Shown in pieces: positions 17,252-35,663 of a stretch of 64,000 nucleotides of DNA. A model generated the notes under the pieces. It ran no database searches and was not told where the DNA came from. It saw only the letters and a program-made list of their open reading frames with translations. The position numbers and the translations under genes are program-made. Source of the DNA: Octopus sinensis (lineage: Eukaryota); assembly GCF_006345805.1 (NCBI RefSeq), contig NW_021833025.1, forward strand, positions 62,001-126,000. The letters are read 5' to 3'. How positions within the stretch are numbered: the stretch's first letter is position 1; each line of letters begins with the position of its first letter.

Positions 17252-18627
17252 TTAACTGGTAGAATCATCCTGTTCTTCAATGTTCTGACCAACCAATAAT
17301 CCATTTATGATATCATGGAATGATCGTCGAGCTACCAATGAAAATTATAATCTCACTATGGGAAGGCTCTTGATTTTGCTCAGGAATCTCAGGGACTTTC
17401 TCCCTATATATTTTTTCAATCAAGGAAAATCTAAACACAATCAGCGCAAATGAATACTTTGCATGAATTCCACCTCCAGGAGGAAGGAAATCAAACTGTG
17501 ACTCGCTTACAAACCTAAAAACACGATCAAGATACACTTTTGGACCCTCCTGCTCAATAACGGCTACAAATAATAAAATGTTCGAAATAAACCAGTAACC
17601 AACGAATTGATTTTTTCATCCAACATGCGACTTTGAATTACTACTTCCGAATTAATTGTAGGACACTTTGGAAATGATATAAAAATAACACTCATGTTAT
17701 CACGACTTCCCTAAATAGGTAATAAATTAAAAATACAACCCTATGGAAGCATGTATTTATTATAGAATTGCATATTTCTTCGTTATACTCTCCACACTGA
17801 AGGAGGTATGTCGTCAAAAGACAGAGATCCTCGTTGGAGATGACATCGAAAATACCATCGCATGCCAATATTATAAACTGGTCTGTTGAATATCGTTCCA
17901 TAATAGTAATGTCAGGTTCTGGGGAAACTTGTTGCTCTCTTGTTGGCAGTCCTTGAGTATTTTTGTAGTCAAAGTCTCCTATTGCTCGAGAAACAGCCAG
18001 CTGTCCGTTCACTCTTTGAAGCGACACAGTTCCACCAGCATTTTCAATTCTGAGTTTTTCAATTACATTATTAGGTTTGTGATCGACAGAAACAAATCGG
18101 AGGTCCCCACATCCCCCACACAGAACACACCGAGAGTCACCAACATTGATGAAAATGTAATGTTTGGGAGCAATTAAGACCGCCACGGCAGTTGTTCCAC
18201 TCTTCTCTGGATCTGGTTTTCCGAGAGGCTCGAGAAACTTAATTCGCAGTTCGTCGTCAAAATTGATATATGTCTTTGAAATACTCTCTTCCAGAGCTTG
18301 GAAAGCACTTTGGAGTTGATCTGTCTCCATGTCATTTTGAAGAGATTCCATGTATGCCTCCGCAGCCTGAGTAAAAGAATCCTCTGATAAAAGTCGTTGA
18401 ATTAGCTGTTCAGCACAATGATTGGCTGCAACTGATCCAGCGTGTCCATCAAAAACTGCAAAAAACGACCAATCTGATAGTGGCTCTGGAAGGGTAACAA
18501 AAGACGAATGTGCATCTTCCATCTCTTGCCTCCAACCTTGCATGTGACTTAGTGCATATGTCATGTTGTTTCCTTGACCGGAGGAAGTTGTTTTGTCCGT
18601 TTTGGGTTTAGAAAGAAAGACGCCCAT
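17252..18627 (-). CDS. PPM1A: Protein phosphatase 2C (PPM1A/B orthologue), 5 exons
   Basis: MGVFLSKPKTDK, SHMQGWRQEMEDAH, VFDGHAG, DHKP, LAVSRAIGDFDYK, LACDGIFDV, then after micro-introns GSRDNMSV and LPPGGGIHAK. Confidence 0.95.
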
Positions 18628-19763: not shown

Positions 19764-20360
19764 TAGGGAAAGTTTTTTCTAGCACTTAAAAAAAATTTTT
19801 AGCGCTAAAAAATCACAAAATCTAGCATTTATAATTAAAAAAATTAGCACTTAAAATAATCAAATCTAGCATTTAAAATTGTAAAATATGACGGCCTAAC
19901 GACATTTAAATTTTATTTATTGTAATATAATATAAAGTAATGCTTGATATTGTTTGGATCGAAGTTCCCATCCTTTTTTAAAATATTTTTCGGCATTTTA
20001 ATTGCTCTTTCAACAAATGCAGAGGATGCCTGACAGCATGAAAGTAAAAAATAATCTTGTTGGCTAATTTTCGGTTCAGTCATTTCAATAATAGATTTAA
20101 ATTCATTTTCCTCTATTCTTTTATTCATATAATTTTTAATATTTGCCTTGTCATCATAAAAATTTAGTCCTTTTATATCATAATATGCCCGATTGATTGA
20201 GTAGTCGAAGCATTTCGAAACTAAGAAGATTTATTATTTGTAAATAATTGGATATGATCTCCGTTAATTTAAGTTTAATATCGGGATCAATTACATGATC
20301 TTTAGCATTTTATACTAAAACTCCATCTGACTGAAATCTGTTAACAATTTCACAAATACA
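19764..20360 (-). mobile_element. hAT (DUF659-type) 3' remnant
   Basis: TAGGG terminus followed by repeated TAGCA(C/T)TTAAAA. C-terminus SCCQASSAFVERAIKM..NFDPNNIKHYFILYYN parallels 15643-15837. Confidence 0.7.
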
Positions 20361-20364
20361 CACG

Positions 20365-20985
20365 CACAGGACGAATGGGACAGGATTCTCTGTGATCAGA
20401 AGTCGAACAATCTCAAGCCTAAGCTTAACCAACATCGCTTGGCTTGTTTATTGGCTGCCTCGCAACCATATTCGGGGGCTTGGTTGACCGCCATCCCTAT
20501 GGGATCGATTGGAACCTTATTGGACGATGATTGCCTGAGGATCGGCGTCTCATTGCGCCTGGGGCTAAACGTATGCCAAGAACACCGGTGCCGCTGTGGA
20601 TCGACTGTTGACCCCTTTGGATTGCACCCATTATCGTGTCAGAGAAGCTCCGGACGCTTTCCCCGACAGGCTGCCCTTAACGACATAATCAAGCGTACTC
20701 TTGAAACTGGCGGATTCCCATCATACTTGGAACCGGTCGCCCTGGTTCGGGAGGATGGTAAACGTCCTGACGGCCTAACGACTTTTCCCTTCGAAAATGG
20801 CAAGTCGCTCATATGGGACGCAACTCGCACGGACACCTTCTCCGCCGGAAACATCTTTACGTCAGCCGCAGAGCCGGGGTCCGCAGCCAACCTTGTGAAA
20901 ACATCAAAAGTCAAGAAATACAGTGTATTATCGCACCGTCATATCTTTACCCCGATCGCAGTGGAGACGTCGGGAGTTCTCGTTA
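20365..20985 (+). mobile_element. CRE-clade retrotransposon fragment (zinc knuckle plus REL)
   Basis: SGAWL..LRLGL..HRCRCG..HPLSC..GKRPDG..WDAT..PIAVETSG. Confidence 0.88.
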
Positions 20986-21108
20986 AATATTAAATAACAG
21001 ATTATTTTGATTTCTCATTTGAGTTAAAATTGAAATAAATGTCAGAAGTATTTTACAAATTATTTTGAAATTCGTGAAATAATATTTCGCTGCTTTAAAC
21101 CAACTTCT

Positions 21109-21566
21109 TAAACCACGCAGACAACCTACTTCACAAATGCGAAAAAAATTGAAAATCCTCCAAACTCTATCCGGCAAATGGAAAAACGGTTCGCACCCGG
21201 TACTGGCGAATATCTACCGCCAGTACTTCGAACGTTTCATCGCCTACGCCTGGGGATCATGGGGTCCGCGGTTATCGTGGTCCAACAGGAGGCGAATCGA
21301 GGAGACCCAACAAAGGGCCCTCAGATTAACCGATCGTTGGTCGCATGATAGCGAACGCCCCGGTCCAGCTTCTCTGGAAGACCTTATCAAGCTGAATCTC
21401 GGTCCGTCAGCAAACGCCCCGTCAAAAACGGCCTGCCGCCCGGTGCGATTTTGTGTGGGCTCGTGGAAAGATCACCGAGCGAAGATGAGGTCTCTGGTCA
21501 AGTGCATCGGGATAACGTGACTTTTGTTTGACTCTCATCGTGGTCTTGGCGGTTAAATAAATAAAA
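21109..21566 (+). mobile_element. 5'-truncated LINE with (TAAA)n tail
   Basis: 13-bp TSD TAAACCAACTTCT at 21096-21108 and 21567-21579. IYRQY..YAWGSW..IEETQQRALR. The 3' UTR motif is shared with 4857-4920. Confidence 0.85.
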
Positions 21567-21697
21567 TAAACCAACTTCTGCATCTGCATAAATTAAGAAA
21601 AAGAATACCTAGTAATTACCACATCAGGTGGGTATTCTACATCCTTGAACAACTTACAACGTTTTCGGTTTTTTACTTTTTCAGCTTTAATGGTTTT

Positions 21698-21772
21698 GTT
21701 TGTCGATGTGGGTCACCTTCTCGTGGTGGCAAATGATAGTTTCTCATGGAATTAACTACCAAAAGACCCACA
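21698..21772 (+). ncRNA. HDV-like self-cleaving ribozyme (Pr77-like 5' hallmark)
   Basis: P1 GTTTGTC/GGCAAAT with G1-U wobble. P2 TGTGGGTC/GACCCACA. P3 ACC/GGT. L3 TTCTCGT. P1.1 TC/GA. P4 TAGTT/AACTA. J4/2 CCAAAA. Confidence 0.85.
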
Positions 21773-24700
21773 ACCCCCCCCCCCTGTCGGATCGGATACC
21801 TTCCGTGACGTCGGTGGCAGCAGAGCAGGCGCGAAGCCGTTGCTCCAAGGACCTCTCTTTTACACTCCCAACTCGCCCTTCTCCTCTCCGGAGACATCGA
21901 ACAAAACCCTGGACCCGCCAGGAAGAACCTACTTCGTATCCTGCAAGTAAACATTAATGGGATCGCCCACAAGACCACTGAACTCTGTTCCTTCATGGAG
22001 AAGTACGACGTGGACATTGCTTTGGTGCAGGAAACGAAGCTCTCGCCCAAAAACCGCCTGCCCGATTTCCCGGGTTACTCATACATCCGGCGAGACAGAC
22101 CGAACTCCGTAAATGGCGGGGGCCTTTTAACCCTTATCAGAAAATCAATCCCTTTCTCTAACTGTACATCACAAGCTTACACACTAATCGATAACGACCC
22201 TGTAATTGAGCTGACGGCTATAACGGTCTCTACAGGGCGCTCAACCAGAAGGCTGATCAACATGTACATCCCTCCGTGTTCATCCTGTCCTCACGGTTGG
22301 ACCCCTTCAATACAAAACCTCCAGTCACTCAGTAATGTCTTTATCTGCGGCGATATGAACGCAAAGAGCCCGATTTGGCTAAAAAATCAATGCCTCAACT
22401 CAAGAGGAACTCTTATACTTGATCAACTTGACGGTCTGGTCATCCTCAACAACTCCTCATCCCATACCAGAACCCCGTCAAGATATGGCGACGCAATCTC
22501 CTCTCCCGACATCTCACTGTGTACTCCTATTCTGGCCTCCGTTACCTCCTGGAAGGTGGTTTATGACCTAACCAGTGACCATAACCCAATCATAATCGAG
22601 AATGCTCTAAAATCTAACATTGACCTACAACGCCGCTGTTACACTAACTACAAAAGAGCTTCCTGGGACGAATACCGCCTTGCCCTAGAAAACTCTCTGA
22701 ACGATTTCAACATCAACAGCTTTCGCTCGACTGATGCAGCAGTCAATCACCTTAATGCTCTCATCATTTCCACCGCCAAAAAATTCATCCCCCAAGGAAA
22801 AATTGAAAAGTTCCGCCCTAATTACAGCAACGAAGTGAAATCCCTCATAAAGACTCGCAACAAGCTGAAACAGACATCAAGGCACTCTGCCGAGTCCTCC
22901 ATTGAATTGGCTAACCTAAACAAACAAATCACCGCTGCCATTAACTGCACGCAGATTCTAAGTGGACCGAATTTATCACCTCAATCGACTACAGATCTAA
23001 CAGCTCCAAAATCTGGAAGACCCTGAAGGACATGAATGATCTGATTTATGAAAAGCCCAAGTCCCATGAATCTGCCACTTCTAACTCAAACATCCCACTG
23101 AATCCGGTTCAGGAGGCAAACTCGCTCATGAACTACTACGCCTCCTTAAGCCACAAAACCTCAAACAAAAACGATCGGAAGGTCGCCAAATCTCGGAGGA
23201 GCTTACCTCGCACGGAATCCTTACCGCCTTTCACTGCAGACGAAGTTTCGCAGTGTATAAAAAACTCGAAGAATTCCCCCGCCACGGGGCCTGACAACAT
23301 TTCTATCCACCACCTTAAAAGACTTGGCCCTAACGCCATCAACGCTATAGTGTCTATTTTCAACAATTCGGTTGTAAAAAACGAAATTCCATCTCTTTGG
23401 AAAAAATCACGTATCATCCCGTTAATCAAACCGAACAAACCGGCTGGCATTCCAAGCTCATACCGCCCAATCTCTCTTTTGTGCACGCTATCTAAAATCC
23501 TCGAAAGACTAATCCTTTCACGAGTCTCGAAGCACTTACCAACATCCCACACCCAACATGGCTTCAAACCACTGCACTCAACAACCACTCACTTAACAAC
23601 GCTTTCCCAGTTCGTCCTGGACGGCTTTAATGAGAAGAGGCCCCCTAAACGAACAGTTCTAGCTTCCATCGACATATCTAAAGCTTTTGACAGCGTCCCC
23701 CGTTGCGGTCTCACCAAGAAAATTCTCACGACCGGCCTAGACTCAAACTACAAATCCTGGCTTGCTAACTTCTTATCGGGCCGCATGGGCTACGTCTCCC
23801 TCATGGACCATTGTTCCAAACAACGCTATCTTCCAAACGGGGTACCGCAGGGCTCCGTGCTGTCTCCGTCCCTGTTCAATCTTTACTTGCATGACTTCCC
23901 GGCAAACGACCCTAACAACTTGACACTATCTTACGCTGACGACATTATTATTGCCTCAAAACACGAAGACTACAAAGCTGCCTCCTTCAACCTTCAGCAA
24001 CAACTCCACTCCGTTGAGAATTGGCTCAGAGAAAACAGGCTCGAGGCCTCGTCCTCCAAGTCCTCGGTCACCCTATTATCTTCCGACAGAAGACAATCAA
24101 ACATACATCCCATCCTATCTCTCTTGGCTCTGTTCTCCCACTATCAAAACACCCCACTGTTCTCGGACTAACCTTCGACCCAACGATGTCCTTCAACAAA
24201 CATGTCTCGAAGATCTCTGGCAAGGCTAACAGGCGTACAAATATCCTGAAAGCAATAAGTGGTCACATCACTGGTGCGCAGAAACCACTTCTCAAACGTG
24301 TGTATAAACAATACATTCGCCCTGTCCTAAGCTACGCGAGTCCGAGTTGGGCTCCCTGTCTATCTATGAGCTCCTCTTTGGCTCTCCAATCAATTCAAAA
24401 CAAAGCCATGCGCATCATATCCGGGTGCCTGAAATCAACACCCATCGACCATCTGCACTGTGAAACCAACCTCCTCCCGATAGAGGAACATCTAAACATG
24501 AGAGGAGCACAATTCCTATTCGCTTCGCGAAAATTCTACCACCCTTGCACTGCCCTAAACACGCTAAATGACAACGGCCGTGCTTTGAAGAACACGCCTG
24601 CCAAACTATACTCCCGGGTACTTGCCAAAATCAATGGCCTAAACCAATGTTCACAGCCAATGAAAAAAATCCACGACTTCATTTCAACGTCGTCCATTCT

Positions 24701-25028
24701 AAAGCTGAAGCCTAACTCTGTCCTCAACAAACTCCCTCCGGAAGTTCACCCCTCCGAATTGCTTCTGGAGCGTTCCGCTCAGATCAACCTTGCTCGTTTC
24801 CGCTCGGGCCACCACCACTCACTAAACTCCTACGCTCACTCATTGAACGCCGTGATCTCCCCGGTATGCAACCTCTGCTGTGCCGAAGATCACTCAACTG
24901 ACCACCTTTTCCGCTGCCCTGTTCTCCTCCCTGTCCGCAGGAAATTTGCTGTCCACTCCCCCGAGGTCCTTTGGGAGCAACCCGCGAAGGCGCTGTTGTT
25001 TCTGCTAGCCGCCGGTCTCATACCTTAA
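21746..25028 (+). pseudogene. Vingi polyprotein: leader-2A-APE-RT-CCHC, with one in-frame TGA (21806) and two frameshifts (~22950, ~24120)
   Basis: The ATG at 21746 is in frame with LALLLSGDIEQNPGP (ending 21916) and with ORF 21995-23026. It continues in ORFs 23032-24171 and 24021-25028. Confidence 0.85.
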
Positions 25029-25079
25029 TGTGAGACCGGGGTTATGCAACAACAACAATGCTCGCAATCGAACCATCTA

Positions 25080-26611
25080 CAGTCTGTACCAAAACATTAT
25101 AATATTGACAAATTTATCAATAAATCATTTGTATCTCTACTTATATCAATTTTTAAGTGTTAATTTTTAGCATGTAATTTGTAAATTGACTTATCTAACT
25201 ATTCTTAAATAAATTAATTCTTAAAAATATATTACATGCTAAAAATATATTGTCATGTACCAAAACATTATAATAATTTTTGTCATGTAACAAAAGATTA
25301 TAATATTTTCTAGTATTTGATGTTTTTCCCTCGAGATTTTAGTACAGCATCTACTCTTTTTGGCATTGATTCAATTAAAACTTTTATTTCTTCAATTTTA
25401 ATTTCATTCCATCTGATTTTCAGTTCATTTTTCAGATCCTCTATCGTTTTTATTCCACGAGCCATAACTTTTCGTTTCATTATTCTCCAAAGATTTTCGA
25501 TTGGATTGAGATCAGGCGAATTAGGAGGCTATTTCATAAGATTAATTTTTTGGTTTTGAATCCACTCAATCGTATCTTTTGCAGTGTGTGCAGGAGCATT
25601 GTCCTGATGAAAAATGTAATTACATCCATCATATAACTTTTGACCAGTTGAAATTAAATTTTTTCTAATATTTCTCTGTATACTAATCCATTTACAGTTG
25701 AATCAATAATTGAAAGCGGGCTCAACCCATTAAAACTCATCGCTCCCCACACCATAGCTCCTTTTCTGTAATGAAGCTTTTGATTTATGCATGAAGGATG
25801 AATTGTTTCATTTCTTTTACGCCAAACATAGCACCTTTTTCACCAATTGACAGCAGAAACTTAGATTCGTCAGAAAAAATAACTTTGGACCACTGTTCTA
25901 TAGTCCAGTTTATTTTCCCTTTAGCCCATGCTAATCTTTGCTTCTGTTGTTTTAATGTTAGGAAGGGCTTGCAAACAGGGGTTCTGGAAAAAAATCCCAA
26001 TTGGTTTAGACGTCTGCTTATTGTCATTCGGCTCAAATTAATTCCGTGAGGAATAAGTTTTTCGGAAATTTCCTTAATAGAGATGAATCTATTTTCCATC
26101 AAAACTCTTTGAATAACTCTTTCTTCTCGTGAAGACGTTAATTTCGGCCTTCCCTTTCCGACACGATTGTTTTTCTCGTTATTCTGCTTTCGCAACACGT
26201 TGGAAACTGATCCTTGTGAGCAATTTGTGATTTCCGCGATTTTGTTTTGACTAAGTCCAAAGGTATGGAGATTTAAAATAATTTTTTTGGTATCAAATGA
26301 CAAGTCGCTTTTTCGTTCCATGTAAATTAAATAATAACGTGTTAAATTTAAAATAAATTTGTTTTTGTATGAAAAATATAAAAATTATTATAATGTTATG
26401 GTACATGACAAAAATTATTATAATGTTATGGTACATGACAATTTGTATCACCAAACCAGTGATCTCGTAAAATCAAATAATTTTTTAAATAGTTAAAGAA
26501 AGTAAATTTGAATTTGGATGTAAAAAATTAAGTCATAAAAATGGATATTTGTGAAAATAGAGTTATATTTTAACTAAATTTACGAGTATTATAATGTTTT
26601 GGTACAGACTG
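25080..26611 (-). mobile_element. Tc1 (DD34E-type) element, IR/DR ends, frameshifted transposase 25310-26321
   Basis: TA TSDs. Outer 25-bp TIR CAGTCTGTACCAAAACATTATAATA, repeated twice more internally at each end. GRP, VIFSDESKF, FHQDNAPAH, SPDLNPIENLW. Confidence 0.93.
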
Positions 26612-27048
26612 TATTTCCGGATATGCACCATAAAACCGTATTGTGTAACAAATGAAAAACTCAAGTCACATGATGCATGTTGTTATACATGACCATTAAA
26701 GTTTTACTACCTATTCATTTAGATACTTTTATATCACCAGAAATCATAAAAGGAGCGGCATTTGAAATTAATAGATAAAAACTGTCACGAAGAGTCTTCA
26801 TTTCTCTAATGACTATTCTAAGAATTATTTTTAATGCTTTTTTAAACCGACTTTCCAGGTATGAACAATGGGTACAATTTTCACCTTAGTTTTGTAAAAT
26901 AATTGAAATTGCCTAGCTAGAAAGGGATATTTATGTAGTTATATTTATGTAGTTATATTTATTTATTATTAATATAAATTAAATAATAATATATTATTTA
27001 ACTACGGAAATAACTATAAATAGATTAATTATTCGTATCATTCTTGTT

Positions 27049-34437: not shown

Positions 34438-35663
34438 TTGGAAACGACCGCCCCACGCTGTGTGTCGCTTAATAGCAGCTGGCTTCCTGCATGTCAGGGA
34501 GTTCGGGGCTACTAACTAACTAATTCTATTCCTTGTCTTATCATAGACAATGATATCCGACTTGTTGTTTCCTACAGCAGTAGCACTTCAGTTAAGAAGA
34601 GTTATTCCTATTTATTAGTTACCCTGGAGATATGTATTTGTCAGGAACTGATATAAAATTGAGTGTAAAGGTTTCTTTTCAATTTTTTCTAGCAGATTTA
34701 TAATTTTAATCTCCTTCAGTTCTTCGGATGTCAATTCAGTTCTTCGGATGCGAATGTTGTACTTTTGAGAGACAAAATACACAATAGTGACCATATTTGT
34801 TTTTCTTTTCTGTATAACCATTAGGTTTTCTGATCTTTTTAGAAGTCAAAAGAGGTTTAAAATATTATTTTATAATTTTTTAAAAATAAAAGTCGATTTA
34901 TTTCGAATCTAATTTTTTTGTCGGGAACTGTAGCTCTTTCCCTTAAATAACTTTTTCCCTTAAAAAAGATCGACATTAATACACGACTTTATCTCCACGA
35001 AAGCCATCCGGAGACTATCACCGAATAAAATAATTCAAGAACTTCCCCCGGAAATTGATGAATCTGAATCACTATTCCCAATAATAAAACCTGTGATTCT
35101 CGCAAGACTTCGCTGCAAACATCACTCCTGCCTTGGACACGATTACATGGGAAAAAAACAGAAAGAGAACCCTGCTACGTGTGTAACTTCAATCAACCAC
35201 TTGTTTTCCTATTCTATACCACCGGCAATGTCGCTACCACACACAGCGCTTCGGCACCTTTGGAAACGACCGCCCCACGCTGTGTGTCGCTTAATAGCAG
35301 CTGGCTTCCTGCATGTCAGGGAGTTCGGGGCTACTAACTAACTAATTCTATTCCTTGTCTTATCATAGACAATGATATCCGACTTGTTGTTTCCTACAGC
35401 AGTAGCACTTCAGTTAAGAAGAGTTATTCCTATTTATTAGTTACCCTGGAGATATGTATTTGTCAGGAACTGATATAAAATTGAGTGTAAAGGTTTCTTT
35501 TCAATTTTTTCTAGCAGATTTATAATTTTAATCTCCTTCAGTTCTTCGGATGTCAATTCAGTTCTTCGGATGCGAATGTTGTACTTTTGAGAGACAAAAT
35601 ACACAATAGTGACCATATTTGTTTTTCTTTTCTGTATAACCATTAGGTTTTCTGATCTTTTTA
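34438..35663 (+). repeat. 404-bp apparently identical direct duplication (34438-34841 = 35260-35663)
   Basis: Direct comparison by eye. The ORF track also shows identical peptides at 34615-34821 and 35437-35694. Confidence 0.92.
34970..35345 (+). mobile_element. Vingi-type 3' end with hairpin and (CTAA)n tail
   Basis: LPPEIDESE..LARLRCKHH..HLF..LWKRP..LIAAGF, homologous to 24730-25028. Confidence 0.8.

Follow-up and report, generated by a model that had tools for sequence, protein, structure and literature searches.

What does the 75-base stretch at positions 21,698 to 21,772 do for the LINE retrotransposon that it opens? A sequence-only reading of the window (the whole 64,000-nt stretch of the Octopus sinensis assembly that was analysed) had described it as a complete HDV-like ribozyme occupying the 5′ end of a Vingi element. 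We find that the stretch is a conserved HDV-type fold at the front end of the element. Our main reading, with a probability of roughly 0.68 and built on comparisons of sequence, is that the fold forms the first 75 bases of a LINE without RNase H, likely cleaves 5′ of G21698 through C21759, and likely serves as coding sequence too, with translation from the AUG at base nine yielding a leader that would be shed by a 2A peptide. The in-fold AUG and its frame, the 2A motif and a set of sister families with an altered core are additions to the sequence-only reading.

Geometry and conservation of the fold

The nested double pseudoknot lies on the forward strand, and its five helices, as proposed in the sequence-only reading, were confirmed base by base. 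P1 joins 21698-21704 to 21728-21734 through seven pairs, including G1-U and one U-G, and G21698 is both base 1 of the element and the predicted cleavage site. Inside P1, the P3 helix (21715-21717 with 21725-21727) closes the 7-nt loop L3 (21718-21724). A 2-nt J1/2 separates P1 from P2, which has eight Watson-Crick pairs (21707-21714 with 21765-21772). P1.1 (21719-21720 with 21735-21736) consists of one U-A and one C-G pair, P4 pairs 21737-21741 with 21754-21758 around a loop that is 9 nt shorter in family B, and J4/2 spans 21759-21764. The order of P1, P1.1, P2, P3 and P4 is correct for HDV-like ribozymes, and the core features are all present, i.e. a G1-Y first pair, the U and CG of L3, and a paired P1.1.

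An HDV descriptor, written with knowledge of the 21698 site and allowing a J4/2 of 4–6 nt, matched that site alone on both strands of the window and gave no match in 200 dinucleotide shuffles; restricted to the canonical 4-nt J4/2, it had no match in the window. Rfam scans returned no HDV-type family, only chance-level matches to unrelated ones. The HDV-type models in Rfam each cover single lineages, and a match to them is not a defining requirement. The nested minimum-energy fold is ordinary (z = -1.39, with 21 of 200 shuffles equally good), which is expected because the folding program cannot score pseudoknots. The proposed P4 is present but weak when taken alone, at -0.8 kcal/mol versus -3.8 kcal/mol for a local alternative, and it is backed by the shorter stem of family B.

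A protein search of the same genome revealed related families at 40–50% identity, the 5′ ends of which carry the same scaffold. Among 23 hand-picked copies from 11 related families, and with P4 left out of the set, P1, P2 and P1.1 covary, as the sequence-only reading had asked to be checked. The covariation score is 0.32, versus 0.17 in shuffled and 0.06–0.12 in slid alignments, 8 of the 20 pairs vary in both partners (a figure reached in 8 of 500 shuffles), and pairing holds in 86.5% of cells versus 78.2% after shuffling, all figures that relatedness can inflate, since related sequences can beat a shuffle without any structure. By helix, 4 of 7 pairs change on both sides in P1 and 3 of 8 in P2, the outermost pair of which is unpaired in 16 of the 23 sequences. 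Alternative paired versions of P1.1 occur in family C and in three loci from other samples (L222, L223, and L230), where the helix differs yet stays complementary; this supports the U-A pair of the window copy and bears out its description as a compensatory UC/GA version of P1.1.

These three loci were recovered with a relaxed descriptor, loosened after looking at the sequences; of 81 loci from other samples, it picked out the fold in these 3, each time directly before a 2A motif, and it matched nowhere in 18.2 Mb of shuffled loci. They represent 3 of the 7 metagenome loci that have both a 2A and upstream DNA. A metagenome scan that used one protein as query gave no relative; searches of prokaryote and viral collections gave mostly distant reverse transcriptases (RTs), and a PDB search gave distant LINE-1 and R2 proteins only.

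The element, its ends and its host

Downstream of the fold, and on the same strand, the element encodes an apurinic-type endonuclease domain (21941..22582; Pfam PF03372 and PF14529), an RT domain (23437..24075; PF00078) and a C-terminal Cys/His motif (24867..24917), seen in the translation without a Pfam match, which we take to be CCHC-like. A 9-bp hairpin (25012-25020 with 25031-25039) takes in the stop codon, right ahead of the tail, and may be recognised by the RT; the 3′ end is marked by a (CAA)4 tail (25047-25058). In the window copy the ORF is split over three overlapping frames; in copy L131 it is unbroken and encodes 1098 aa. An RNase H domain is absent from all three intact ORFs at E ≤ 1, and no RNase H accession occurs among 120 listed homologs, the entries of which bear no clade names. 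This architecture supports the Vingi label of the sequence-only reading, as Vingi elements are defined by a single ORF with endonuclease and RT and by the lack of RNase H (PMC13708176). Membership in the strict Ingi clade, for which the criterion is an RNase H domain, was considered and rejected.

Searches within the genome place the start of homology at about 21698, the DNA upstream of it being a different repeat. Copies with independent flanks also begin at this G, as had been proposed for checking. Specifically, G occupies position 1 in 10 of 11 copies of family A, 5 of 6 of family B and 12 of 16 of family C, with mixed bases upstream; these counts cover copies with independent flanks that match an anchor motif, and thus exclude 5′-truncated ones. 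In contigs from 3 sequencing runs (3 studies), matching starts at 21696-21698 and the flanks differ. Of 11 core-intact copies with both ends present, 8 are flanked by a target-site duplication that reaches position 1 to within about 1 nt, one of these 8 duplications being only 5 bp long; of the remaining copies, one has a 14-nt self-duplication of ribozyme sequence in between and two have no duplication. For the window copy there is no clear target-site duplication, the match found being judged to be chance, as were the matches for four family-E copies and for L145. Family 5′ ends at G21698 and covarying pairs are thus what the computational part of the refutation test found, where the sequence-only reading had named 5′ ends elsewhere and no conserved pairing as the outcome against it.

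Some copies have unusual joins. In L043, L045, L059, and L147, matching stops at element base 73-74, i.e. at the end of P2, and in L147 this base is joined directly to base 1186 and, upstream, the first 12 bases recur in tandem. The stops may reflect jumps of the RT at the edge of the fold, or alignments that end before a C-run. In L135, L136, and L137 the first bases of the element abut an inverted segment of its 3′ part, which suggests that the template RNA ended at base 1-3.

The sequence-only reading also spoke of a micro-intron host, and one example is indeed present: a 29-nt intron (17712-17740, reverse strand) in a neighbouring PP2C-type phosphatase gene. A pattern for families C–K has 99 matches in the assembly, versus 7 for a reversed control; 94 of the 99 are on contigs with numbers over 1000, and the other 5 on very large scaffolds with low numbers. 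The runs that contain the element are labelled with organisms other than the assembly's species. From the small-contig bias, the run labels and the 29-nt intron, we infer that a second, micro-intron organism was co-assembled with the large host genome.

The surroundings of the element are themselves rich in repeats. A high-copy repeat (21566-21694 and 26611-26812) was split by the LINE, followed by a transposon of Tc1/mariner type (25078-26613, with inverted ends at 25078-25318 and 26374-26613) that holds a transposase fragment on the reverse strand (25785-26384). Directly upstream, 21083-21570 looks, by eye, like a family-I relative's 3′ end with its tail. Further upstream, 20331-20993 is an ORF fragment without a Pfam match, presumably akin to the C-terminal portion of a retrotransposon of the restriction-like-endonuclease type. 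Elsewhere in the window, 404 bp are repeated exactly and in direct orientation (34438-34841 and 35260-35663).

Candidate catalytic base, reading frame and core-altered families

If the fold cleaves, which base would do the work? The candidate catalytic C of the sequence-only reading is present in J4/2, although the linker, at 6 nt, exceeds the canonical length by two bases and not by one as had been stated. J4/2 begins with C in 10 of 11 copies of family A and in all 6 of family B (in family C such a count is circular, as the search pattern itself demands the C), and the second is C, G or A depending on the family. Combined with the placement of the catalytic C at the first base of J4/2 in PMC10879173, this makes C21759 the candidate; C21760 was rejected for this role, as its position varies by family. 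The G1-U pair, the U...CG of L3, P1.1 and the first-position C all agree with the descriptions available in PMC6326823 and PMC10879173.

Three traits argue against high activity: the 6-nt J4/2, the 2-nt J1/2 and a competing helix (21724-21729 with 21756-21761) that buries C21759 with a probability of about 0.8 in a nested ensemble, where pseudoknots are unscored. J4/2 is given as 4 nt, plus one active elongated case, in PMC6326823 and PMC10879173, it is 5–6 nt in the metagenome relatives, and short J1/2 spacers slow cleavage (PMC4908430). Our reading is that the fold likely cuts the element RNA free at G21698, a step for which the precise junctions of core-intact copies give indirect support.

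The same bases also appear to be coding. An AUG at the J1/2-P2 junction (21706..21708) is in frame with the ORF in intact copies, and families A and B have a second in-frame AUG (21733-21735). Between the fold and the endonuclease domain, a 2A/StopGo-like peptide (21863..21916) ends in D-I-E-Q-N-P-G-P (Asp codon at 21893), all on the forward strand. It has the D-x-E-x-N-P-G-P form with a hydrophobic tract upstream, near the ORF N-terminus, by which 2A sequences are recognised in PMC3894237, and a strict 2A-like pattern occurs in 46 of the 120 nearest proteins among the matches listed; the motif alone does not guarantee an active 2A (PMC3708506).

The 2A was located in 44 copies of families A–H; in 35 of them the distance from AUG to 2A is divisible by three, and in 29 the AUG is present, in frame and followed by a stop-free stretch, with family spacings of 186, 174, 168, 159, 156, 150, 150 and 138 nt. 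Only 1 of 5 assembled family-A and 0 of 3 family-B copies pass all three tests. The window copy is out of frame, with a spacing of 187. In short-read contigs from runs X1 and X2, two C-runs have other lengths and the spacing is 186, so assembly error or decay of the copy likely accounts for the 187.

In family C, the in-fold AUG is the sole Met from 80 codons before to 120 codons after the 2A, and in family A the next Met past the 2A is already within the endonuclease. In family D the junction codon is GUG, and the first base starts an in-frame AUG instead. The 2A is gone from family I, where the AUG is in frame with the endonuclease in 1 of 2 distinct scorable copies; family K is in frame but with a stop, and the single family-J copy is out of frame. 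Among the metagenome loci, L223, an unrelated element, shows the same layout, with an AUG in frame where P2 begins, L230 has an open frame without an AUG, and the ORF of L222 starts downstream of the fold. These patterns suggest that the fold is likely translated as a throw-away leader that the 2A-type signal would shed. Two side observations concern single families: in L089 and L173 (family I), which represent one and the same locus, an arginine-rich run stands where the 2A motif would be, with the AUG in frame, and several of the family-E copies L094, L095, L099, L102, L158, and L187 have an extra AUG, also in frame, that precedes P1 position 1 by about 11 nt.

Eight sister families, D–K, keep P1 (5–6 bp), P2, P3 and P4, mostly retain the AUG, and fail the descriptor that families A, B and C pass. 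By eye, family D has no C between P4 and P2, families E and F have an L3 of 6 nt without the conserved G, and families G, I and J have insertions in L3. In an endonuclease tree of 43 rows, D–K fall on one side of a branch found in 93% of bootstrap trees, with support of 91/94, which is under the star threshold of the tool, and they are probably a single clade. Family N, also without the C, sits on a long, unplaced branch of this tree, and families M and O were not classed.

The 5′ ends of the core-altered families differ as well. Upstream of P1 position 1, family-E copies have several bases in common and family-I copies two. All four family-D copies with both ends have 13–33 extra bases between duplication and element, one family-E copy has 8, and the extra 5′ bases of the family-D copies were not found at the other loci compared. 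Among copies with a readable duplication (six without one are left out), junctions are precise in 8 of 9 core-intact versus 0 of 5 core-altered copies (Fisher P = 0.003). The imprecise D and E junctions fit a loss of cleavage; in R2, deviant folds can still cleave (PMC3774820). It may be, as part of the wider reading given below, that one sub-lineage dropped catalysis while keeping the pseudoknot and the start codon.

Proposed mechanism, competing explanations and known systems

Under our main reading, a read-through transcript would fold and self-cleave at G1 by means of C21759, releasing the element RNA with a protected 5′-OH end that would be copied to its last base at insertion. A ribosome starting at the P2 AUG would require the same RNA to be unfolded. 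Since the AUG lies within P2, a folded state (template) and an unfolded state (mRNA) would alternate. The 2A skip would then throw away a leader of 40–60 residues, and with the leader discarded, the RNA fold would be free to vary as long as the frame is kept. A wider proposal, which we put forward tentatively and at slightly under even odds, is that this one 75-nt RNA serves as 5′ processor, protective cap and coding start, that its folding acts as a switch between template and mRNA, that the 2A exists to discard the leader, and that one sub-lineage lost catalysis and retained the pseudoknot and start codon.

How well do other explanations account for these observations? Chance resemblance to the HDV fold would sit well with the absence of an Rfam match, the ordinary nested energy and the use of descriptors tuned with the sites known, and is effectively refuted by the failure of the descriptors to match any of 200 window shuffles or 18.2 Mb of shuffled loci, by the exact placement at element ends, and by compensatory changes within and between genomes. 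A fold that is real and cleaves slowly or never is a more serious proposal. Here an internal promoter would set G1, and the pseudoknot would act as a nuclease shield or a protein-binding handle. The long J4/2, the short J1/2 and the competing helix all point this way, an internal promoter predicts the precise G1 end equally well, and families D–K retain the scaffold without a recognisable core. There is also precedent, as the first 77 nt of L1Tc are a promoter that starts at +1 (PMC3185411), and protection by structure and not by activity has been proposed (PMC11331408). Nonetheless, every core base is kept in families A, B and C although protein identity between A/B and C is about 45%, and the contrast between precise junctions in core-intact copies and imprecise ones in core-altered copies (8 of 9 vs 0 of 5, P = 0.003) speaks against it; we regard this explanation as unlikely.

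The ribozyme could instead be active and its AUG not the true start, with initiation at a downstream or non-AUG codon in an IRES-like manner, a route suggested for R2 and L1Tc. A start codon that lies 8 nt from an uncapped end and within a helix is poorly placed for initiation. The open frame of L230 has no AUG, families A and B have the second in-frame AUG, and IRES-like initiation has been proposed for HDV-like ribozymes (PMC6765202). Yet initiation downstream of the fold would need no open frame through it, and the length changes in P4 and L3 preserve the frame; moreover, the U of the AUG is kept even where it is unpaired, and family D shifted its AUG instead of losing it. We consider a start elsewhere quite improbable, and prefer the reading of a cleaving and translated fold.

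HDV-like ribozymes at LINE 5′ ends and 2A sequences in the Ingi clade are already known. In the literature searched, which lies outside Ruminski 2011 and Kojima 2011 (the likeliest prior sources) and outside supplements, we found no description of a Vingi ribozyme; with the same two papers outside its scope, the search gave no start codon within an HDV-like ribozyme of this sort and no lineage with the scaffold and without the core. How translation starts on uncapped, ribozyme-cut LINE RNAs, and why some of these elements carry a 2A, are questions left open in PMC3383444 and PMC3894237, and an AUG inside the ribozyme with a 2A downstream ties the two together. One genome contains both families that retain the catalytic core and families that lack it, so that cleavage could be told apart from the structural role of the fold; if our wider proposal is true, the core-altered sub-lineage is a natural experiment that reveals a non-catalytic job of the HDV fold. 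Given that Vingi elements are under development as gene-insertion tools (PMC13708176), a 5′ ribozyme and a 2A in this group would also bear on the understanding of their RNA ends.

Compared with the HDV/CPEB3/theta consensus (PMC6326823, PMC10879173), the fold shares G1-Y, the 3-bp P3, the 7-nt L3 with U...CG, the 2-bp P1.1 and the C at the first position of J4/2, and differs by a U-A in place of one C-G in P1.1 and by a J4/2 of 6 nt versus 4–5. Like R2, the element has a 5′ processing fold with a flexible periphery, a structure thought to shield the RNA end (PMC3774820, PMC11331408); R2, in contrast, is site-specific, uses a restriction-like endonuclease, often has a long J1/2 and carries its ORF downstream of the ribozyme. 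As in Vingi LINEs, the element is compact, with a single ORF of the endonuclease type and no RNase H (PMC13708176, PMC5786205, PMC3708506). However, Vingi is not among the six clades with 5′ ribozymes in the available text of PMC5786205, and no 2A was found for Vingi in that of PMC3708506, whereas both the fold and a 2A motif are present here. A close parallel in layout is L1TcRz/Pr77 from L1Tc and ingi of trypanosomatids, in which an HDV-like fold occupies the first 75–77 nt from +1 (PMC3185411, PMC3383444, PMC4035085), one ORF places a short peptide together with a 2A ahead of endonuclease and RT, and target-site duplications occur. In L1Tc/ingi the ribozyme is described as 5′ UTR and RNase H is present, whereas in the octopus-assembly element the fold appears to be coding, with an internal AUG, and RNase H is absent.
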